64,000 nt of DNA. Origin: Nanobdellota archaeon (GTDB taxonomy: Archaea > Nanobdellota > Nanobdellia > Parvarchaeales > Parvarchaeaceae). Shown here piece by piece: positions 2,861 to 64,000 of the stretch. The notes beneath the pieces are model-generated. The model was not told where the DNA came from. It ran no database searches and worked only from the letters and a program-made list of their open reading frames with translations. Position 1 is the stretch's first letter, and every line of letters starts with the position of its first letter. The position numbers and the translations under genes are program-made. The stretch lies in NCBI GenBank assembly GCA_021802105.1, contig JAKAAW010000001.1, forward strand, positions 8,150 to 72,149, written 5' to 3'.

Positions 2861-2903
2861 GGCACTATCTAAAAAACTTTATAATTGCATGGAGATTTAT
2901 CAA

Positions 2904-3190
2904 TGTGAGCAGAAAACCCACACTCTTTAAAGGCAGGATAAAAGTGGACTGAAAGAATGGAAAACATAAATAGCAGGAGGGCAAAGTAACAATATGCTGA
3001 CGGCATACAAATTCAGGCTGTATCCAAACAAAGAGCAAATAGAGACATCCTCCAACTACTTCGGCTGCAGCAGATTCTTTGGATACCTAAAGTACAAGGT
3101 AGTAAAGCAGGGGCCATACACCCCCGGGAAGCTTAAGCTTTCGATATGAACTGGGATCTCATGGATGAATACATAGGAGGATGTCACGAT
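2904..3190 (+). mobile_element. degenerate IS200/IS605-family element remnant (MITE-like), copy A, homologous to copy B at 25509-25848
   Basis: It contains a 52-codon ORF (2994-3152) beginning MLTAYKFRLYPNKEQIE..., which is the hallmark N-terminus of IS605 OrfB/TnpB. It is ~80% identical at the DNA level to copy B over the first ~160 bp and over the last ~60 bp, with an internal deletion relative to B. A subterminal palindrome, agcttaagct, lies at 3128-3142. Confidence 0.55.
2994..3152 (+). pseudogene. tnpB: tnpB (IS605 OrfB) 5' fragment, truncated after ~50 codons
   Basis: It translates to MLTAYKFRLYPNKEQIETSSNYFGCSRFFGYLKYKVVKQGPYTPGKLKLSI*. The N-terminal 26 residues are almost identical to the copy-B ORF at 25598. 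The RuvC and zinc-finger regions are absent. Confidence 0.55.
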
Positions 3191-9042: not shown

Positions 9043-9062
9043 GTGACTGTACAATTGCAAAA
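9043..9062 (+). repeat. 5' strand of the 23S rRNA processing stem (tgtgactgtacaattgcaaa), perfectly complementary to 11918-11937
   Basis: A 20-nt perfect inverted repeat flanks the 23S gene, as expected for the archaeal pre-rRNA processing helix. Confidence 0.7.
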
Positions 9063-11917
9063 CACCAAACTATTAGATGGATGACTTGGTTCAGGTGCCG
9101 ATGAAGGACGCAGCAAGTTGCGATAAGGGCACGGGAGGCGCAGACGACCGTTGATCGTGCTGTTTTTGAATGCGTGATGCCTGCATGTAAATGCAGATTC
9201 CTTCATACGAAGGAAAGGGAACGCAGGGAACTAAAACATTTTAGTACCTGCAGGAAAAGAAATCAATCGAGATTCCCCCAGTAATGGCGAACGAAAAGGG
9301 AATAGGGCAAACCGAATCCGCAGCAATGCGGAAATGTGGTGCGAATCATGGCCGTATAGAAGGAGGCGAAGTCGACTGGAATGTCGCGTCATAGAGAGTG
9401 ACAACCTCGTAGTCTTCGGAAATGCGGTCATCGTATAGAGTAGCAGAGGTCGATACTCTTCTGTGAATACGGGTGTCAAAAACATCCAACCCTAAATACA
9501 ACCTGAAACCGATAGAGTATAGTAGCGTGAGCGAAAGTTGAAAAGCACTCTTGATGAGAGGGCGAAAAGAACCTGAAATCTAATAGTTATAGTTGTTGCG
9601 GCGCGTTGTGATTGCGTCAATAAATAAGCGTAATCAAGTGTTGCAACATCCTTTTAGCATAAAGGGGCAGGGAGTTTACGAGTACGGCAAGGCTAACGAA
9701 AGGGAGCCGAAGCGAAAGCGAGCACGCAAGTGCCGGTAGGAAACTGCCGTGAGTCGTATTTGTAAGACCCGAAGCCGTGCGATCTATACATGTGCAGGGT
9801 GAAGTGAGGATTACTCTTCATGGAGGCCCGAAAAGGTCGGGAACTATCTCGTCTTTTGACATGTGTATAGGGGCGAAAAACCAATCGTGCACGGCAATAG
9901 CTGGTTCCCATCGAAATATCCCATAGGATAGCTTTTGTCTCGTTGTGTTGAGGGTAAAGATACTGATCGTACAGATAGGGACCGAAAGGTCCCACTGCAC
10001 TGTCAAACTCAGAATATCAACATGGCAAGGGGCAAAAGTTGGGTGTATGGCGTAAAGTTTTACACCGAGAAGGAAAAAACCTAGCCGTGAGTTAAGGCCC
10101 TTAAATGTTGACTAAGTGCAAAAAAAGGAAATCATATCTAAAACAGTTGGGAGGTAGGCTCAGAAGCGGCCATCCTTTAAAAAGTGTGTTACAACTTACC
10201 AACCTAGGTATGACGACCTAAAAATGGACGGGGCTAAGTCAACTGCCGAAACTCACGATTGTCGTAAGACAATGGTAGATGGGCGTGCCTATGGACTAGA
10301 AGTCTGTTCGTAAGGGCAGATGGATCTGTAAGGCATTGAGAATCCTGCCAGGTGTAGCAAAGAAATAGGTGAGAATCCTATCCACCGCATGTGCAAGGGT
10401 TCCTTGTTTTAAGCTTATCTAACAAGGGTTAGTCGGTCCTAAGTGTCGTTTCGAAAGGAACGCCGCAAATGGGAACGCGTTTAATATTACGCGACCACAT
10501 GCGTTTTATCACGTACCACGCGTTGAGATATGCGGAGTGGTCCCGTCGGATCATCCACGGATACGTCGTGTTCGAGAGACGTAATGTCGAGAAGACATGG
10601 AAGTGTCTGTGATGCAGCGATGCATTCGCAGATTCCCAGCGCTAATAAAAACGTACGTGTCATGAACGCAGGTGACCGTACCGAAAACCGACACAGGTGC
10701 ACTGGCTGAGAAGGCTAAGGTGAGGGATTTAAACCGGGTAAGGGAAATCGGCAAATCAGTCCTGTAAGTTCGCAATAAAGGATCCCTGATCTGGTCTTAA
10801 AAGCGAGATCAGGGCGCAGTGACTAGGGGAGTCTAACTGTTTACTAAAAGCATAGCTGACTGCGAGAGAGCAATCTTTAGTACAGTCGGCGACATCTGCC
10901 CAGCACAGGTATCCGAAAGTTCGTTCCAACGGATATAAGGACCTGTTAGCGGCGGAGGTAACTGTGACCTTCTTAAGCAAGCATAATCCATTGCCAATTG
11001 ATTGTTGGCTTGTGAACGATGTAATGAGATTCCCACTGTCCCTACCTGGAAACCCGCGAAACCACCGTCCTGGTGCAAAGGCCAGGGACCTCCACAGGGT
11101 CAAAAAGACCCCAGGAACTTTACTGCAATCTCTTGTTGTAGTATTAAGATGATGGACATAGAGTAAGTAGGAGACGTTATTTCCAACGTTCCGGCGTTGG
11201 GATAGTCGAAAGTGTAACACTACTTCCATTGTCTTATACTGCTTACCTTCGGGGACAGCATGAGACGGGCAGTTTTGCTGGGGTGGCAATCCCACGAAAA
11301 GATAACATGGGAGCCCAAAGGTCATCTTAGGCGGTATAGAAATCCGCTGTTAAGTGCAATGGCAAAAGATGGCTTGACTGTGCGCTGCAATGCAAGGCGC
11401 GCAGAGGCGAAAGCCGGGCATAGCGAACACGAATGTGTGTGTTTTTGACTCCTTCGTATGACAGAAAAGCTACCCTGGGCGTAAGAGAGTTGTTGCGGAC
11501 GATAGTTCATATTGACTTCGCAGCTTGCTCCACAGTCTTTGGCTCTCCCCATCCTGGTTGTGCACAAGCAGCCAAGGGTATAGGTGTTCACTAGTTAAAG
11601 GGGACCGTGAGCTGAGTTTAGGCCGCCGCGAGGCAGGCCGGTAGTTAACTTGTGGAGGTGTTTTGATGCCTGAATGGAAGATTCGACTAGTACGAAAGGA
11701 ACAGCGAGTCGGCGCCTCTAGTTAGCGGTTATCCGACAGGGTAAGCCGCGTAGCCACGCGCTAAGGGCTAAGAGCTGAAAGCATCTAAGCTCGAAACCCC
11801 CCGTAAAAAGAGGCATCGTTGAGGTCGGGGAAAAAGACCCCGTTGATAGAATCGCCGTGTAAGAGCCGAGGCGAAAGCCGAGGTTTTCAGCGGACGATTA
11901 CTAATAAACCAAAATTC
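9063..11917 (+). rRNA. rrl: 23S ribosomal RNA (large subunit), not linked to a 16S or 5S gene in this window
   Basis: The 5' region 'GGATGACTTGG..CCGATGAAGGACG..GCGATAAGG' and 'GTACCTGCAGGAAAAGAAATCAATCGAGATTCCCCCAGTAATGGCGAACGAA' are homologous to the E. coli 23S 5' domain. The 3' region carries 'GCTGAAAGCATCTAAGCTCGAAAC' and 'GTTGATAGAATCGCCGTGTAAGAGC'. The length is ~2.85 kb, and boundaries are approximate (within about 15 nt). Confidence 0.9.
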
Positions 11918-11937
11918 TTTGCAATTGTACAGTCACA
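11918..11937 (+). repeat. 3' strand of the 23S rRNA processing stem (tttgcaattgtacagtcaca)
   Basis: It is the reverse complement of 9043-9062. Confidence 0.7.
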
Positions 11938-19178: not shown

Positions 19179-19257
19179 ATACTAACTTATTATTGCAGTG
19201 AAATAAAAGCGTTAGGAAAACTCTCCGCAATAAATACTTCAGGCAGCTAAAAGATAT

Positions 19258-19566
19258 TTACTTGTCTTTTTCTAACTCTTTCTGTGCCTCTTGTAGGTGT
19301 TTTGTCGTCTCCTCGACGGATTTGCTGACTTTCTTAAGCCTGAACTCTAAGATTTCAAGTTTTTCTTTCATAGCCGCTTCTATGTCCATCTTTCCCTTTT
19401 TGATTAAGACCTGCCCCACCATTTCGTATATTTGATCTGACTCAGACGATTTAGCCACTTCGTCGAGAGTTCTTTTTACCTCGTTGTATTGTAGCTGGAA
19501 AGTCTGTTTTTGGGTCATGTCAACCTGCAGCTGCTGTCTTAGATTCTCATATTCCGATTCATTCAT
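19258..19566 (-). CDS. pfdB: prefoldin beta subunit
   Basis: It is a 102-aa all-helical coiled-coil protein, and its position immediately downstream of pcc1/rpoP/L37Ae is the conserved archaeal arrangement. Confidence 0.7.
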   Translation of the reverse strand: MNESEYENLRQQLQVDMTQKQTFQLQYNEVKRTLDEVAKSSESDQIYEMVGQVLIKKGKMDIEAAMKEKLEILEFRLKKVSKSVEETTKHLQEAQKELEKDK

Positions 19567-19811
19567 AGTTCATCTATCTCCTCCATAGTCGATATGGCAT
19601 TAAGATATGTGCTTATTACCGACTGTAATAATTTAGTATTCTTAGTTTTTATGTCTATATACAGGTTGCCACCACTACTTTTTACATCAGCTGAAATCTT
19701 TTCCGTGCTTCTTACATTGTCTAATATGGCAGCACGCACGCTTTTTATAAAATCAGCCTTTCCTTTTAGGACTATTCTTGCACTGTTGTCCTTCTCATCT
19801 GGCTTTGACAT
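19563..19811 (-). CDS. pcc1: KEOPS complex subunit Pcc1-like
   Basis: It is an 82-aa protein in the conserved L37Ae-RpoP-Pcc1-prefoldin beta gene string. Identity is assigned mainly from synteny and size. Confidence 0.45.
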   Translation of the reverse strand: MSKPDEKDNSARIVLKGKADFIKSVRAAILDNVRSTEKISADVKSSGGNLYIDIKTKNTKLLQSVISTYLNAISTMEEIDEL

Positions 19812-19935
19812 GGTGTCCTGTCTCAGGCCGCTTTTTAACTAAGATTCTACCCCCACAGTATGGGCATCTTATTATGTCCTTTATCTCAGTGGAATCGACT
19901 GTTGCACCACACGAAAAACACGAATATCTTACCAT
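19795..19935 (-). CDS. rpoP: DNA-directed RNA polymerase subunit P (Rpb12/RpoP), missed by the ORF track
   Basis: It translates to MVRYSCFSCGATVDSTEIKDIIRCPYCGGRILVKKRPETGHHVKAR. The CxxC...CPYCG zinc ribbon and 46-aa size are typical of RpoP. It overlaps pcc1 by 17 nt and lies directly downstream of rpl37ae. Confidence 0.7.
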   Translation of the reverse strand: MVRYSCFSCGATVDSTEIKDIIRCPYCGGRILVKKRPETGHHVKAR

Positions 19936-19936
19936 A

Positions 19937-20134
19937 TCAGCTCAAAGATTTTACCGTCATTGTATATGCGCCGTCGGCTATCTCTAGTCCACAGCGTTTG
20001 CAGGTCCAGACACCGCTATACAGGCGTTTCATCGATAATTTCCTGCACTGAGGGCATTTGTATTTCTGTGAGCGCAACTGCTCTATCTTTTCAAGTCTCC
20101 TTCTCACACCCACACCGTATCTGGCGGTTCTCAT
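19937..20134 (-). CDS. rpl37ae: 50S ribosomal protein L37Ae
   Basis: It carries 'RTARYGVGVRRRL...KYKCPQCRK...WTCKRCG...AGGAYT', the C4 zinc ribbon of L37Ae. Confidence 0.85.
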   Translation of the reverse strand: MRTARYGVGVRRRLEKIEQLRSQKYKCPQCRKLSMKRLYSGVWTCKRCGLEIADGAYTMTVKSLS

Positions 20135-20230
20135 ATTCTTTTCTTTTGAAAGTTCAGCTATTTAAAGCTTAAAAAAGCGTAAATTTCACATTTTGAAACA
20201 GATTTATATTACGTAATTGGTTTAATAGCT

Positions 20231-25493: not shown

Positions 25494-25508
25494 CTATTAT
25501 TTATAAAG

Positions 25509-25848
25509 TATGAGCGGAAAACTCACGATTTGAATCGTGGGATGAAAGCGGACTCAGAAATGGAAAACATAAATAGCGAAAGAGGTAGAATAACGATATG
25601 TTGACAGCATACAGGTTCAGATTGTATCCAAACAAAGAGCAAATAGAGACATTCTCCAAGTACTTCGGTTGCAGCAGAGTGGTATGGAACAAAGCCCTAG
25701 AGTTGAGAGAAAGCTATCACAAAGAGCATAAAAATGATAGGGTCTACGAGCCACGGTCTAGAGAAACAGGAACTATACGCCATGAGAAAGCTCAAGCTTT
25801 CAACAGGGGCTGGAATATCATGAATTCATTTGTGGGAGGATGTCACAA
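25509..25848 (+). mobile_element. degenerate IS200/IS605-family element remnant (MITE-like), copy B, with left and right subterminal hairpins
   Basis: It carries an LE-like hairpin ctcacgat-ttga-atcgtggg at 25522-25541. The tnpB 5' ORF (25598-25852) starts MLTAYRFRLYPNKEQIETFSKYFGCSRVVWNKALELRE, a typical TnpB N-terminus. A RE-like hairpin gaaagc-tcaa-gctttc lies at 25786-25801. The element ends 'gggaggatgtcacaat', the same terminus as copy A. Confidence 0.6.
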
Positions 25849-25852
25849 TTAA
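25598..25852 (+). pseudogene. tnpB: tnpB (IS605 OrfB) 5' fragment (84 codons), lacking the RuvC and zinc-finger regions
   Basis: The N-terminal motif MLTAYRFRLYPNKEQ is present. The ORF terminates after 84 aa, whereas intact TnpB is ~400 aa. Confidence 0.55.
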
Positions 25853-38923: not shown

Positions 38924-41900
38924 ATGCCAAAGTACAGCTTGACCATAAATAAAAAATCGCAATCAGCCCTAGAATACCTTTTGACATACGGTTGGGCCAT
39001 AACGATAATCGTGCTAGTTATGGCCGCCATATATTATATGGGAATACTTAACATACCTCCTTCAGGTCCTGCAATAAGCGGTTTTTCAGGTATAGAAGTC
39101 ACCGCAGTTCAGGCAAACACATCCGTTTTTGAGTTTAGCATAAAGAACAACTTGGGTATAACCGCAAATCTGTCCACATTATCGGTTTCTTTCGATGGAA
39201 ATATGTACAAATTATGGCAATGCACGGCTACAATCCTCGACCCCGGTGAAAGTGCGATATGTGCGATATTAGGAAACTTTTCAGCATCACGGATATCCGC
39301 ACAGGTATCAATGGCGTATTCTGTGTCTAATATTTTAGGAGGGGTCTCCAATGGAACCATCTCAATAACACCGCAGGTACAGTTTATCTCCAGCCCATTC
39401 TCCCCATATTCTGTAAGGATAGCGGTATACAATAATCAGTCATCAGCTACCCCAACTCCGTTTCAGCAGGCGATAAAGTTTAATCCCACTCTTTTTTCCG
39501 GTTATGAACTATCTAATCTAGGAAACATAAGGCTCTATTACAACGGGCAGGAGCTATACAGCTGGTGCGAATATGGCTGTTCAAACAACGCGAACAGTTC
39601 GCTTATATGGGTAAAACTTACGAACTCCATCGCCGCAAATTCGACTATTAATCTTACGATGACATTCGAGCCACTAACCAACTATAATTCTGTGTATTCT
39701 GGTGAAGCCCCGCAGCTCTCTCCCGTGTACGGAGAATATGACAATGGAGCTAATGTATTCAATTTTTATGATAATTTTAAAGGGACTACTCTTGATACAA
39801 GCAAATGGTCCGGAGGTTCATGCCAGGTAATTTCAAATGGGTTATTAATCCCATCAAGTTGTAGTACACAACTAAATTCAAATACTGAATTTTCTAATCC
39901 TCTAATTTTAGAGGCAGACATGAATTTCGTAGATGTGTTTAATAATGTAGGTGGGATAGACGGAATTGGGATTTTTAATGCATCAAACGGTGCAGGTACT
40001 TATTATATTGGATGGTATAGGTACTCCGGAGGATTTTTCAGCGGTGGTGAATGGAACCCATCACAAAGCTGGCCGCAGTTCCCAGTCTCTCCTTTAACTA
40101 ATCATTTTTACGTTTGGAGTATATATTGGCAACCGTCATATTCATCCGTAATGTATTTAAACTATACAGATAGCGTTTCTCCCACAACTTACCCAGGCGA
40201 TTATCCTATAAAAATTGGAATTAACGCTCAAGGGGCGGCCGAATATCTAATGAATTGGATTCGTGTGCGTTCCTATCCCCCAAATGGAAAAATGCCTTCC
40301 ACATCAATAAGCTCTATAGGAAACCAGCCAATATATACGAGAGCCATAACGTTCTACAACGGACAGAATATAGCTACTTCAAATCCCTTCCAGCAGATGT
40401 TTACAACGGATTCCGCAGTCTATTCTGCTTATGAAGCGCCAAACCTTGATAACATACAGTTCGTTTATCAGAATGGATCAATAATACCATCATGGTTGGA
40501 GTCAGGAAACAGCAGTAAATCAACAGAGACAACATACTGGCTGAAAATAGGGAGCATTCCTGCTGACGCCGGAGTGACCATCTATGAAGTGTTCTACTCT
40601 ATAGCGGATAACGTTTTCAACAACATCAACACTGGGGAGGCTCCTCAATTTTCTCCGGTGTTTGGGGAATACAATAATATAGCAAATGTCATGGATCAAG
40701 GTTTGGCATATCAGGTGTATTACGACAGTGGTGGAACATGCGACTCGACGAATTACCAGACACAGCTTTACAATTCTTCTTTGGGCAACGGCACAACAGT
40801 ACTAGGATGCGCTTCGTTTGTCTCTAATACGGCACCATTTTCAGCAATCTCTCCCGGGACGTCTCAAAACGTCGATGGAACCACGGAACCGAACGTAGTT
40901 ATAAATTATCAATCTGGGTACAGTGGCGGTGCTCCTTATCCAAATCCACCCATTGCAAACACTGCGAACTCATGGTTGGTTAAGGCGATAGGGTGGGTGA
41001 ACATCGCTTCGTCCTCTACATCGACATTTAGTGAGATAGCAGATGACGGCATCACCCTAAGCTACTCTAAGAACGGTGGAAGTAGCAGCGGCATAAATTG
41101 GCTCGGTGGCTCATCGAGCCCCAATAATTTGATATCCCAATGGCATACGACCGGCGCGGCAGCATATACAAGTAGCAGCATTTCTGCGGGGACTTATAGG
41201 ATCGAATTGGATTATTTTGAAGATGGGGGAGGCTCGTATACTGGACTTTGGTCAAGCGCTTCAGTGGATTACTATCATGCCGCTTATCCTCCCGATGGAG
41301 TCATGCCTACTGTCATAGCAGGAACAAACATCCCTCTACATACGCAACCGATAACGTTCTACAACGGACAGAATATAGCTACTTCAAATCCCTTCCAGCA
41401 GATGTTTACAACGGATTCCGCAGTCTATTCTGCTTATGAAGCGCCAAACCTTGATAACATACAGTTCGTTTATCAGAATGGATCAATAATACCATCATGG
41501 TTGGAGTCCGGTGCAAGTAACGCCGCTACTTCAACGATATACTGGCTGAAGATTGGAAGCATTCCTGCGAACGGCAAACTAACGATATATGAGGTATTTT
41601 ATCCTACTTCTATAAACATGTTCAATACCATAAATACAGGTGAGGCCCCGCAATTATCTCCGATATATGCGGAATACGACGATGGAGCAAACGTATTCAA
41701 CAATTATTGGAATTTTGCAGGGACAACCTTACCAAACGGATGGACATCAAGTATAGGTTCAAGTAGTGGTTCAGTTACAGTAAATAACGGAGTAACACTT
41801 GCTTCTGGAACGGGAGGTAATAACGGTTGGGGAACAATTAATTACCCTTTTACAATGCCAGCATCAGATCAAACGATTGTAGAAGTATATGGTAAAACAG

Positions 41901-43084
41901 CAAGCACAGGCAGGCAGAGGATGTATCTGACAGATACAGCTACTTCTATTTTTGGAGGATATTATTCTGATTTAGGATTTGATTATGGTATTTATGGAAG
42001 TTCTGAAATAACTAGTGGAGACCTGCAGTATTATTGGAATGGATATAATTCTCCTTCTAATTCTGCTTTTGCAATAAATATCCCTTATATTATACAATAC
42101 ATTTTATCAGGTTCTACTTTTTATTGGAATATTTTAAATCAAACCGAATCAACAGTAGCATCACAATCTACAACGCAACCTTCTTCAACAACTGTCTTGT
42201 CCTTGATAGATGATGACGATAGTGGAGTAACTCAATCAACATACTATTGGATTCGTATGCGTGCCTATCCTCCAAATGGACTTATGCCAGGTACAACAAT
42301 AACAGTATTCACGGAATCCGGTCTTCCAAGCGGATACAAATGGAATGTCACATATAACAGCGTGCTGCAGAGCTCTACAACGTCATCGATTACATTCTTA
42401 AATACCCAAGGCACGTATTCTTACACCGTCCCCACGCTTTCCAACTCTAGTGCAGGTTGCACAACAACATACACTCCTTCATCTTCATCAGGAACATTGC
42501 TAGCAGGCTCAACACAGTCCATATCATTCAGCGGCTCCACCACATGTACTACAGTATTCACGGAATCCGGTCTTCCAAGCGGATACAAATGGAATGTCAC
42601 ATATAACAGCGTGCTGAAGAGCTCCACTTCCAGCACCATAACCTACTCTACTACATATACAGGAACGCAGCCGAGTTACTCTTACACCGTCCCCACGCTT
42701 TCCAACTCTAGTGCAGGTTGCACAACAACATACACTCCTTCGTCTTCACCTTCTAGCCCTGTTGCTGTTGGGTCTTTAGTATCTGTTACTTTTACCCCCC
42801 TGACAACGTGTACTACGACATTCACAGAATCTGGTTTACCAGGAGGGTACACCTGGTCAGTCGACTATGGCGGCACAACGTATTCCGCATCTAGTGGATC
42901 CCAAATACAATTCACGACGGCGCCTGGTACTTATTCATTTTCAGTAAGTCCAGTTGACGAGTCACCACTTACATCATGTGCAGCTACAATAGTAGAGTAT
43001 TATGTTTATTCTCCTTCCCCTTCTTCGGGGTCATTAGTAGCAGGTTCGCCGCAATCAATAACCTATTCATTGGTTTGTCCGTGA
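38924..43084 (+). CDS. giant (1386 aa) secreted protein with a class III (prepilin-like) signal peptide, three tandem ~330-aa modules and three C-terminal ~85-aa repeats; putative pilus-tip or adhesin-like surface protein
   Basis: The N-terminus 'MPKYSLTINKKSQSALEYLLTYGWAITIIVLVMAAIYYMG' resembles the archaeal class III signal motif (Q-S-x-x-E-Y-L-L). Modules repeat '...FYNGQNIATSNPFQQ...NL.NIQFVYQNG..IPSWLESG...YWLK.GSIPA...YEVFY...INTGEAPQ.SP.YGEYD.GANVFN'. The C-terminal repeats read 'TVFTESGLPSGYKWNVTYNSVL.SST'. It is heavily sequon-rich. Confidence 0.7.
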   Translation: MPKYSLTINKKSQSALEYLLTYGWAITIIVLVMAAIYYMGILNIPPSGPAISGFSGIEVTAVQANTSVFEFSIKNNLGITANLSTLSVSFDGNMYKLWQCTATILDPGESAICAILGNFSASRISAQVSMAYSVSNILGGVSNGTISITPQVQFISSPFSPYSVRIAVYNNQSSATPTPFQQAIKFNPTLFSGYELSNLGNIRLYYNGQELYSWCEYGCSNNANSSLIWVKLTNSIAANSTINLTMTFEPLTNYNSVYSGEAPQLSPVYGEYDNGANVFNFYDNFKGTTLDTSKWSGGSCQVISNGLLIPSSCSTQLNSNTEFSNPLILEADMNFVDVFNNVGGIDGIGIFNASNGAGTYYIGWYRYSGGFFSGGEWNPSQSWPQFPVSPLTNHFYVWSIYWQPSYSSVMYLNYTDSVSPTTYPGDYPIKIGINAQGAAEYLMNWIRVRSYPPNGKMPSTSISSIGNQPIYTRAITFYNGQNIATSNPFQQMFTTDSAVYSAYEAPNLDNIQFVYQNGSIIPSWLESGNSSKSTETTYWLKIGSIPADAGVTIYEVFYSIADNVFNNINTGEAPQFSPVFGEYNNIANVMDQGLAYQVYYDSGGTCDSTNYQTQLYNSSLGNGTTVLGCASFVSNTAPFSAISPGTSQNVDGTTEPNVVINYQSGYSGGAPYPNPPIANTANSWLVKAIGWVNIASSSTSTFSEIADDGITLSYSKNGGSSSGINWLGGSSSPNNLISQWHTTGAAAYTSSSISAGTYRIELDYFEDGGGSYTGLWSSASVDYYHAAYPPDGVMPTVIAGTNIPLHTQPITFYNGQNIATSNPFQQMFTTDSAVYSAYEAPNLDNIQFVYQNGSIIPSWLESGASNAATSTIYWLKIGSIPANGKLTIYEVFYPTSINMFNTINTGEAPQLSPIYAEYDDGANVFNNYWNFAGTTLPNGWTSSIGSSSGSVTVNNGVTLASGTGGNNGWGTINYPFTMPASDQTIVEVYGKTASTGRQRMYLTDTATSIFGGYYSDLGFDYGIYGSSEITSGDLQYYWNGYNSPSNSAFAINIPYIIQYILSGSTFYWNILNQTESTVASQSTTQPSSTTVLSLIDDDDSGVTQSTYYWIRMRAYPPNGLMPGTTITVFTESGLPSGYKWNVTYNSVLQSSTTSSITFLNTQGTYSYTVPTLSNSSAGCTTTYTPSSSSGTLLAGSTQSISFSGSTTCTTVFTESGLPSGYKWNVTYNSVLKSSTSSTITYSTTYTGTQPSYSYTVPTLSNSSAGCTTTYTPSSSPSSPVAVGSLVSVTFTPLTTCTTTFTESGLPGGYTWSVDYGGTTYSASSGSQIQFTTAPGTYSFSVSPVDESPLTSCAATIVEYYVYSPSPSSGSLVAGSPQSITYSLVCP

Positions 43085-63153: not shown

Positions 63154-63227
63154 GGCCGCAGTAGTTTAACTAGGTAGAATATTGGGTTGTGGTCCCATCG
63201 ATCCGAGTTCAAATCTCGGCTGCGGCC
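63154..63227 (+). tRNA. tRNA-His (anticodon GTG) with a genomically encoded G-1, with no encoded CCA
   Basis: The manual fold gives an acceptor GCCGCAG/CTGCGGC and a G-1 (63154) opposite discriminator C73 (63227). The D-stem is GTTT/GAAT. The anticodon stem TTGGG/CCCAT has loop TTGTGGT, giving GTG at 34-36. The T-arm is CCGAG-TTCAAAT-CTCGG. A T9 run follows. Confidence 0.8.
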
Positions 63228-63758: not shown

Positions 63759-64000
63759 TACCCTGACAGTCCCCCACTAATAAATTGGTAGGGTTCTTCT
63801 GATTTGATATCGCAGAGCGTCCTTGCGTTGCATCTTTAGAGATATCAGCGTCCCTTTGCACGAATCTCGGTCTGCATGCAATCGGAGTATACTCTTTTTC
63901 TCCTTCTTTAAACGGAAGGCGATAGCATTCTCCACTATGAATTTTGTGTCATGGCGACACCAGCCTGTCATACCTTGCACTTGACCTCAGATACTCCCTC

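Follow-up and report, generated by a model that had tools for sequence, protein, structure and literature searches.

Probable deletion remnants of a tnpB-only IS200/IS605 element at two loci of an acidophilic DPANN archaeon

In Haloquadratum walsbyi, PATEs and core-deleted IS605-type elements are deletion derivatives of IS1341-type elements that have kept the near-terminal palindromes; their deletions are flanked by short direct repeats and have been described as 'repeat-mediated deletion', and terminal-only copies as short as 52 bp occur (PMC3119063). PATE-like minimal elements of Geobacillus stearothermophilus encode omega-RNAs (Meers et al., PMC10055086). Cleavage of IS608 takes place 19 nt 5' of the palindrome at its left end and 10 nt 3' of the one at its right end (PMC3597680). 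Here we analyzed two related stretches, copy A and copy B, within a 64-kb window, this term denoting the whole stretch of DNA that was analyzed. We hold with good confidence that both stretches are non-coding deletion remnants of a tnpB-only IS200/IS605 (IS1341-type) element of ~1.4 kb. The phenomenon itself is already known (PMC3119063; PMC10055086); what is new is the host lineage, acidophilic DPANN archaea, and a series of deletions that can be followed in place.

An earlier sequence-only reading of this DNA had proposed that the two stretches are internally deleted IS200/IS605-family elements with ~80% DNA identity, and both parts of this proposal held. A full-length pairwise alignment gave a mean column identity of 79% between copy A and copy B, with a single 51-nt block found in copy B only. 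A shared 30-mer, 19-mer and 15-mer each occurred exactly 2 times in the window against a chance expectation of 0–0.2, which argues against a resemblance no greater than that of random AT-rich DNA. Mapping was performed by blastn, with the intact element at locus L022 (1410 nt) serving as the reference for all retained positions, and placed both stretches on a parent of the L022 type with the interior missing. The spans originally proposed, 2904–3190 and 25509–25848, marked real stretches, but the true bounds start further left. The copies and two associated fragments are as follows.

2901..3187, + strand: copy A, a doubly deleted relic of 287 nt, with a later loss of 84 nt more
3064..3112, + strand: RuvC-region piece in copy A, reference 984–1032, 75.5% identity over 49 nt by blastn, read as FFGYLKYKVVKQG
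25505..25846, + strand: copy B, a relic of 342 nt corresponding to reference 1–237 plus 1305–1410
63764..63811, − strand: third probable relic, more decayed, located at the edge of the window, in which a tnpB 'ISNQKN' fragment adjoins a right-end-like hairpin and tip

By blastn, copy A matched L022 at 5–175, 984–1032 and 1352–1410; in L006, a fuller orthologue of copy A, the 3' part reaches 1323–1410 of the reference. About 75–80% of the element, including the nuclease domains, has been lost from the window copies. The 5' end of tnpB, which had been taken as the sole coding remnant, is not all that is left: both copies keep a frame-shifted 3' coding tail, the retained 3' tnpB segment amounting to ~88 nt in A and 106 nt in B with the right-end tip included, and A adds the 49-nt RuvC-region piece. 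The motif tggaaaacataaatagc, formerly regarded as flanking DNA, sits inside the left end of the element. At the other side, ...GATGTCAC is indeed the element end, but the (g/a)at that trails it belongs to the host flank. The count for the window is two clear copies, A and B; pattern searches, a repeat scan, blastn and tblastn revealed no further clear copy in the window, only the one weak remnant at its edge. This remnant consists of two adjacent and colinear blastn matches, to reference 844–862 (95% over 19 nt) and 1377–1409 (79% over 33 nt), and its score with the R1 RNA model was just 10.5 bits (E = 0.13).

Two large protein-collection searches with short peptides returned only truncated proteins of 47–183 aa, all carrying PF12323, with or without other domains. 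The impression gained from these searches, that no parent exists, was overturned by a DNA-pattern genome scan and a third protein search. The scan, which covered one genome per species, found 16 loci; these lie in 'Nanoarchaeota archaeon' and 'Candidatus Parvarchaeota archaeon' MAGs from acid-mine-drainage-type samples, the exception being one Woesearchaeota MAG. L022 carries a 439-aa TnpB ORF, L028 a 427-aa ORF, and L026 a 391-aa ORF followed by a frameshift. The L022 protein contains PF12323 (N-terminal), PF01385 (RuvC-containing) and PF07282 (Zn-ribbon), and the RuvC acidic motifs can be read in its sequence as GIDVG, VIETLN and RDLNAS. Its best natural solved match is the TnpB of ISDra2, an RNA-guided nuclease (8bf8, 8ex9, 8h1j; E = 9e-63). 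The third protein search supplied ~35 more distinct proteins of 427–439 aa with at least 67% identity, from Parvarchaeota wherever a source was named. Given L022, L028 and these ~35 further full-length proteins, the supposition that no intact IS200/IS605 relative exists anywhere is disproved. Relatives had been expected in Thermoplasmata; every close relative is instead labelled DPANN ('Parvarchaeota' or 'Nanoarchaeota'), and on these labels Thermoplasmata was rejected as the host lineage in favor of DPANN archaea.

The intact elements have a length of 1397–1410 nt. Those closest to the window copies share 72–87% identity over the retained N-terminus and 75–87% at the DNA level, and the 'KEQIET' signature of the window copies was present in no intact copy found. 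A metagenome scan with the full-length TnpB yielded relatives of 48% identity or less and three partial ones at ~78%, which are too distant for fine comparison. No tnpA lies inside any intact copy, and a tblastn search of ~650 kb with an IS608 TnpA query detected no tnpA either in the window or at any close-family locus. The same query detected tnpA beside distant TnpBs in eight metagenome loci, indicating that it works. The full-length parent had been envisaged as carrying both tnpA and tnpB; the intact tnpB element was found, but tnpA was not, and the parent is a ~1.4-kb tnpB-only (IS1341-type) member of IS200/IS605. The intact elements exhibit the TnpB domain set, asymmetric subterminal palindromes and a putative 4–5-nt target without duplication, as defines the IS200/IS605 family. 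With respect to the domains, the window copies hold PF12323 fragments only, plus remnants of the RuvC region and tail at the DNA level.

The exact ends and a target tetranucleotide had been named as points to be settled; the ends were set by alignment of the loci, and we infer a TTTAT/TTAT target. At 19 independent loci the left end reads TTAT(C/A)AA(A/G)-TGTGAGCGGGAAAA, followed by a hairpin (CCCAC...GTGGG), ATGAAAGCGAAC, AATGGAAAACATAAATA, ~20 nt and the tnpB ATG, and the sequence 5' of TTAT is unrelated between loci. The left-flank motif is TTTAT at 13/19 independent loci and TTAT at 18/19, which points to TTTAT as the target/TAM. The exact cleavage position is likewise a probable one, because an empty site was not recovered; such a site was sought by synteny with L101, where the flanks are just 69% identical and the comparison was uninformative. 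In empty sites, TTTAT would run straight into GATCACTTATG or AATTAAGGAGG. The right end consists of a second hairpin, then exactly 10 nt, AGGATGTCAC, and then unrelated flank. The stem of the right hairpin varies by copy and always pairs (CCCATCAAT/ATTGGTGGG, CCCATGAA/TTCATGGG, CCCACGCTCT/AGAGGTGGG). In the intact copies the left hairpin, CCCAC(G)CTCT-TT-AGAGGTGGG, is ~18 nt from TTTAT/TTAT and the right hairpin 10 nt from the end; neither terminal inverted repeats nor a target-site duplication is present in the element family. The corresponding features of the window copies are listed here.

2896..2900, + strand: TTTAT in the host flank at the left end of copy A, putative target/TAM
2917..2937, + strand: left-end subterminal hairpin of copy A, degenerate (CCCACACTCTTTAAAGGCAGG), the stem broken by three substitutions
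3127..3142, + strand: internal hairpin of copy A, GGAAGC-TTAA-GCTTTC; as RNA it would include one G·U pair
3158..3177, within 3158..3187, + strand: right-end subterminal hairpin of copy A, degraded, followed by the 10-nt tip AGGATGTCAC
25500..25504, + strand: TTTAT in the host flank at the left end of copy B, putative target/TAM
25522..25541, + strand: left-end subterminal hairpin of copy B, intact (CTCACGAT-TTGA-ATCGTGGG)
25786..25801, + strand: internal hairpin of copy B, GAAAGC-TCAA-GCTTTC, counterpart of 3127–3142 in copy A
25817..25836, within 25817..25846, + strand: right-end subterminal hairpin of copy B, weakened, followed by the tip AGGATGTCAC

The left-end hairpin of copy B at 25522–25541 is present and intact, as had been described, and is also detected by the R1 RNA model (16 bits) through its similarity to the right-end hairpin. 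The gaaagc/gctttc palindrome at 25786–25801 had been assigned to the right end; it is internal. The actual right-end hairpin is separated from the end of the element by the 10-nt tip, and neither copy has it in undegraded form, that of copy B pairing only by way of three G·U/G·T pairs plus one mismatch. Set against a reading of the relics as inert, the left hairpin of copy B is intact and its right hairpin does pair if G·U/G·T is allowed. The palindrome reported for copy A is also present, at 3127–3142, but the change in it is not compensatory: the sole stem difference between A and B is an A-to-G change that gives a G·U pair, accompanied by one loop change. True compensatory changes of the internal hairpin were found in the intact copies (GAAAGC/GCUUUC, AGAAGU/ACUUUU, GGAAGC/GCUUCC), and in a second right-end type it is replaced by GCAGC-RGAUA-GCUGC. 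Both window copies keep the inner stem of the internal hairpin, but their outer stem, CUAU/AUAG, is disrupted; L006, an orthologue, has a disrupted inner stem as well.

Longer versions of both relics were found at the same two loci in sister assemblies, the assemblies originating from acid-mine-drainage communities (ERZ27237xxx samples and JGI 3300039716). In L001 (GCA_027370155.1) the neighbours are those of copy B, a peptidase S8 and a T2SSE ATPase, and the DNA is nearly identical but contains 171 nt more interior, the longer interior giving rise to a 141-aa ORF; L003–L005 match copy B of the window. L006 and L007 have the flanks of copy A, with one difference in ~250 nt, and 84 nt more interior. 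Despite these nearly identical flanks, the interior of copy A diverges from its orthologue by ~10%, for which gene conversion and chimeric assembly are candidate explanations. These longer versions indicate that deletion continued in place at short repeats. Both in-place deletions (171 and 84 nt) are multiples of three. The direct repeats at the junctions are TAG in copy B, GCAGA in copy A, GAGAAGCAGG at an older A-type junction, where it lies between the AEKQG and PEKQE codons, and GAGGATG in L015. The copy B junction and the parts retained at other loci are as follows.

25738..25743, + strand: deletion junction of copy B, reference 237 joined to 1305, with TAG microhomology
L015/L021: reference 2–606 plus only the last ~11 nt
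L025: reference 1–258 plus 1344–1410
L019: reference 6–256 plus 1226 onward
L017 and L031: left end only

There are thus at least 5 independent deletion forms, with the left-end-only relics (L017, L031) being additional to these. The window copies had been taken for two copies of one MITE-like form. Their deletions differ in endpoints, each having shrunk on at its own locus, and they are independent deletion products and not one amplified MITE.

A related question is whether the deleted forms are mobilisable non-autonomous (PATE/MITE-like) elements, the ends being kept so that a Y1 TnpA from elsewhere excises and re-inserts them. PATEs derived from IS1341-type elements provide a precedent (PMC3119063; PMC10055086), and copy B combines the intact left hairpin with a correct 10-nt right-end tip. 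Furthermore, two unrelated loci (window/L006 and L008–L010) share the doubly deleted A-type architecture down to both junctions, the locus of L008–L010 being downstream of a tRNA-like sequence and unrelated to that of the window. This indicates that the deleted form moved, by transposition or transfer, on at least one occasion. Identity between the two A-type copies is, however, only ~80%, an estimate made by eye and not a computed value, so any movement is old, and conserved residues have been replaced in L008–L010 (MLTACKSRLY, FGRS). The B-type form occupies one locus only across assemblies. Each window copy lies at a fixed locus common to sister assemblies and the two differ in deletion form, while left-end-only and tip-only relics indicate that ends are not systematically preserved. 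The intact ends of a MITE or PATE are also missing: both hairpins of copy A are disrupted, and the right hairpin of copy B has three non-Watson–Crick (G·T) pairs plus one mismatch. Finally, the TnpA query that succeeded beside distant TnpBs found no tnpA in the window or the close-family loci. We therefore regard mobilisation of the window copies as improbable, and favor their interpretation as deletion remnants decaying in place.

The remnants contain two ORFs, and these were compared with the intact TnpB proteins.

2994..3149, + strand: 51-aa ORF remnant of copy A; codons 1–27 are the TnpB N-terminus, FFGYLKYKVVKQG derives from the RuvC region, and the rest is frame-shifted tail
25598..25852, + strand: 84-aa ORF remnant of copy B; codons 1–47 are the TnpB N-terminus, the rest is C-terminal tail in a shifted frame, with the stop in the host flank

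Both ORFs start MLTAY(K/R)FRLYPNKEQIET, and both matched Pfam PF12323 (HTH_OrfB_IS605), with E = 1.8e-10 for the 51-aa ORF and 5.1e-20 for the 84-aa ORF, confirming by profile search the TnpB-like N-terminus that had been reported. Gene callers annotate the ORFs (P0001), and the frame was preserved by both in-place deletions, as might be expected if they were small functional proteins with a TnpB N-terminal 'HTH' domain. We give this explanation almost no credence. Conserved TnpB residues have been replaced in orthologues and paralogues (YFGC is YLGR in L006, and L009 reads MLTACKSRLY), the C-terminal halves are the native tail (...ARSTSHDPEKQELYAMRKLKLSIGAG...WEDVT) translated in a shifted frame, and the length of the ORF differs widely among relics, from 47 to 183 aa. 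For annotation, the implication is that short 'helix-turn-helix domain' ORFs of this kind in Parvarchaeota-type MAGs are probably transposon debris, not genes.

The potential of the relics to encode a guide RNA was assessed against the intact elements. Among five intact copies, nucleotide identity peaks at reference 1228–1317 (0.87–0.93) and drops to 0.55–0.72 over the final 90 nt, which contain the covarying hairpins. For the intact copies, RNAalifold gives a predicted multi-stem structure of ~183 nt, of which only the two 3' hairpins have support from covariation, the remainder being invariant. The window copies had been said to retain an omega-RNA-proximal segment. The 3' 88–106 nt are indeed kept, but the best-conserved part, 1228–1304, is missing in both. 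Copy B begins at column 80 of the 185-column alignment of the presumed omega-RNA region and is missing half of the central stem as well as the 5' strand of a predicted CCUGU/GCAGG helix; still less is left in copy A. Scored with a covariance model of the intact copies, copy B reached 63.9 bits and copy A 41 bits, with many forced non-canonical pairs in the 5' half, and the relic transcripts folded no better than shuffles (z = −1.2 and −0.6). The folding and covariance analysis that had been suggested did not yield a complete omega-RNA-like scaffold in either copy. Rfam scans, at gathering thresholds for the whole window and permissive for the parent and copy B, found neither an omega-RNA nor any other family. 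A candidate long-range helix, a 10-bp complementarity between 3044–3053 and 3176–3185 that appears in the MFE folds, was set aside, these folds not being above shuffles; by a rough estimate, chance alone would produce such a match, with G·U allowed, ~0.2 times per 1.4 kb, and in L015 a helix of this type has 7 contiguous pairs left.

From these models we conclude that neither copy is likely to be a complete omega-RNA gene. Omega-RNAs of the ISDra2 type tolerate 5' truncation, and by analogy the 106-nt remnant of copy B might still bind TnpB. This bears on the proposal that the relics are stand-alone omega-RNA genes, the 3' segment being transcribed and used in trans by the TnpB of intact copies. 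Such a role would fit with the retained 3' 88–106 nt, whose tip would precede the guide, with the retained promoter-like box described below, with the inner stem of the internal hairpin, which is intact in both copies, and with the finding that PATEs often encode omega-RNAs (PMC10055086). On the other hand, both copies have lost reference 1228–1304 and with it the 5' strand of the predicted long-range CCUGU/GCAGG helix, decay has reached the outer stem and the right-end hairpin, and the folding z-scores are just those given above. There is no intact TnpB in the window, and the retained 3' length ranges from ~11 to ~185 nt among relics, indicating that no scaffold length is protected. Based on this balance, we consider stand-alone omega-RNA genes very unlikely, and return to the interpretation of the copies as non-coding remnants.

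Both remnants retain a promoter-like box upstream of the tnpB start.

2956..2974, + strand: promoter-like box of copy A, AATGGAAAACATAAATAGC, ~20 nt upstream of the tnpB ATG
25559..25577, + strand: promoter-like box of copy B, identical to that of copy A

The box, also given as AATGGAAAACATAAATA and AAACATAAATAGC, is identical at 16–17/17 positions in loci L009, L015, L101 and L105 from the protein searches. From its sequence and position it is probably the archaeal BRE/TATA promoter of a leaderless tnpB mRNA, although a short upstream ORF might begin there instead. At 8/9 loci with a readable downstream flank, copies A and B included, the start of a co-oriented host gene follows no more than 45 nt past the right-end tip, and the window relics lie 8–42 nt upstream of host genes. 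At L101 the next gene is convergent and not co-oriented, and a convergent gene also follows L093, a related element with different ends. No T-run that might act as a terminator is visible inside either relic. Given the co-oriented genes, the box and the lack of a T-run, it is plausible that transcription proceeds through the relic into the host gene, either from the box or from a host promoter upstream of TTTAT. At L017, the left end plus 3 codons is fused directly to a cytidylyltransferase-like gene. The conservation of the box and its position 8–42 nt upstream of host genes fit selective retention, an observation that also runs against a reading of the relics as inert. An ATG at the right end in frame with the host gene was seen at four loci and was discarded, not being beyond chance.

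These observations raise the possibility that the relics are kept because they serve the host gene downstream as its promoter or 5' leader, a form of exaptation that would be compatible with an origin by decay. The co-orientation at 8/9 loci, the nearly invariant 17-mer, the fusion at L017 and the absence of a terminator-like T-run in either relic would all be expected under such a role. Survival bias explains the co-orientation equally well, however, since only insertions that permit read-through would be tolerated, and intact elements (L022, L105) have the same placement. In addition, a host promoter upstream of TTTAT may still drive transcription, and the lack of a following co-oriented gene at L101 and the convergent gene at L093 are exceptions to the pattern. 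We thus consider retention for this purpose unlikely. A more elaborate version, which we regard as speculative and doubtful, holds that the relics and left-end-only fusions such as L017 are kept since the tnpB box drives host genes: the TTTAT target, resembling a TATA core, would repeatedly place TnpB elements inside DPANN promoters, where the left end is domesticated as a portable promoter/leader and the rest deleted. Promoter donation of this sort, if true, would represent a modest case in which a reduced genome has exapted a transposon.

For the deletion remnants, the following course of events can be proposed. Judging from its anatomy, the parent would have entered by single-strand 'peel-and-paste' transposition just 3' of TTTAT, the insertion sites apparently being short intergenic spacers directly upstream of co-oriented host genes. 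With the insertion fixed at its locus, the interior was lost stepwise between direct repeats of 3–10 nt, as the orthologous loci show, a process that left the left end with the presumed tnpB promoter, 27 (A) or 47 (B) codons, and the last ~88 or 106 nt. The present copies are probably immobile relics and not complete guide-RNA genes, because the nuclease gene is gone, the end hairpins on which a TnpA would depend are broken (A) or weakened (B, right end), and the best-conserved 5' part of the presumed omega-RNA is missing. Transcription would probably start at the promoter-like box and read across the relic into the neighbouring host gene. The loci offer a clean stepwise record of how TnpB elements are eroded by microhomology-mediated deletion in archaea with very small genomes. 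For a TnpB family that is abundant and intact among acidophilic DPANN archaea, they also establish the ends, a likely TTTAT target and the probable region of the guide RNA.

The parent elements closely resemble described members of IS200/IS605. Their end geometry of ~18/10 nt matches the 19/10 nt of IS608 (PMC3597680). The parent TnpB has the domains PF12323, PF01385 and PF07282, with ISDra2 TnpB as its best natural solved match, and in common with ISDra2 and IS608 these IS1341-type elements have subterminal hairpins at both ends and appear to insert beside a conserved short motif with no target duplication. The parent ORF differs from that of ISDra2 TnpB in being ~50 codons longer, extending across the presumed omega-RNA region through the right-end tip. 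The window copies differ from IS200/IS605 elements in lacking ~75–80% of the element, with no tnpA found. Like the minimal elements of G. stearothermophilus, they are non-coding members of the IS605 family that retain left and right ends; the omega-RNA is reported to be kept there, whereas the presumed omega-RNA region here lacks its conserved 5' part and the end hairpins are decaying. The closest parallel in origin is with the elements of H. walsbyi, the window copies likewise being IS1341-type derivatives with deletions at short direct repeats. In contrast to the situation in H. walsbyi, there has been no amplification in this window, the deletions are less complete, leaving 287–342 nt in which coding remnants are still recognisable, and the host belongs to the acidophilic DPANN archaea and not to the haloarchaea.

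The conserved box, a promoter-like sequence about 20 nt upstream of the tnpB ATG, opens an upstream ORF; the regions concerned in the two relics, copies A and B, and in the intact reference element L022 are as follows.

2958-2990, conserved box and upstream ORF region of copy A
25561-25606, conserved box and upstream ORF region of copy B
57-101 in L022, conserved box and upstream ORF region of the reference element

The box opens with ATGGAAAACATAAATAGC (MENINS...), which in the intact copies and in copy B starts an upstream ORF of 14 codons. The TGA stop codon of this ORF and the tnpB start overlap, as ATGCTGA in the intact copies and as ATGTTGA in copy B, and a 1-nt deletion in copy A makes the ORF end earlier. 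As judged from sequence, the conserved box could be a coupling upstream ORF, instead of or besides a promoter.

We also considered the placement of the elements relative to host genes. A co-oriented host start codon lies 8-45 nt downstream of most family members, and at four loci the ATG within the tip, the last 10 nt of the element (GGATGTCAC), shares the reading frame of the host ORF. The right-end flanks considered are those of copy A, the A-type relic L009, and the deletion relics L015 and L025 (and also L022); three flanks read N6-TTATG. The inferred target, TTTAT, is similar to the core of the archaeal TATA box, and this likeness hints at insertion of the elements into promoters. L017 (3128-3260) has an intact left end with three tnpB codons and no more, joined directly to a cytidylyltransferase-like gene (PF01467); by its sequence this is a left-end-only relic, which places the promoter-like box ahead of a host gene.

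Besides copies A and B, the window contains a further candidate relic close to its edge.

63764-63811, possibly on to the window end at 64000, minus strand, probable third relic, more decayed, with a tnpB fragment and a right-end-like hairpin

Here a tnpB 'ISNQKN' fragment (19 nt, 95% identity to the reference) adjoins a right-end-like hairpin, CCCTACCAAT-TT-ATTAGTGGGG, followed by GACTGTCAG, and the match to the covariance model built from the intact copies is weak (E = 0.13). This is probably a third relic of the tnpB element, more decayed than copies A and B. A co-oriented AhpC/TSA-family gene (63758-63237) lies approximately 6 nt downstream.

An rRNA gene and a tRNA gene also lie in the window.

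9053-11926, archaeal 23S rRNA gene
63155-63227, tRNA gene

The 23S rRNA gene is solitary, with no adjacent 16S rRNA gene within the window. Approximately 1 kb between the pfkB-like and MarR-like genes (19179-20230) contains no ORF of at least 120 aa. In the distant relative L101, a full-length element adjoins the same ROK/DeoC/PfkB cluster; the flanks share only 69% identity, and we sought a remnant of the element at 19179-20230 and detected none. A 1386-aa ORF (38924-43084) carries internal direct repeats (40321-42748) of 72-186 nt with 71-97% identity, indicating a large repeat-containing protein.

Codons 17-20 of tnpB can pair with the right-end tip over 10 bp, this involving 3044-3053 with 3176-3185 in copy A, where the helix is perfect, and 25648-25657 with 25835-25844 in copy B, where it includes one G·U. 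The complementarity in L009 covers 8 bp, one of them changed from C-G to U-A, and in L022 it covers 9 bp, three of them G·U. This helix closes the relic in minimum free energy folds, and these folds showed no improvement over shuffles.

The interior of copy A (2901-3187) differs from its orthologues L006 and L007 at about 10% of positions, with transitions predominating; the flanks show 1 difference across approximately 250 nt. The interior divergence may have arisen by gene conversion among the copies or from short contigs that are chimeric.

The tnpB ORF of some intact copies crosses the right-end tip and ends at a stop codon that host flanking DNA supplies (1407-1414 in L022). Intact tnpB extends approximately 50 codons past the part homologous to ISDra2, and these extra codons overlap the presumed omega-RNA region.
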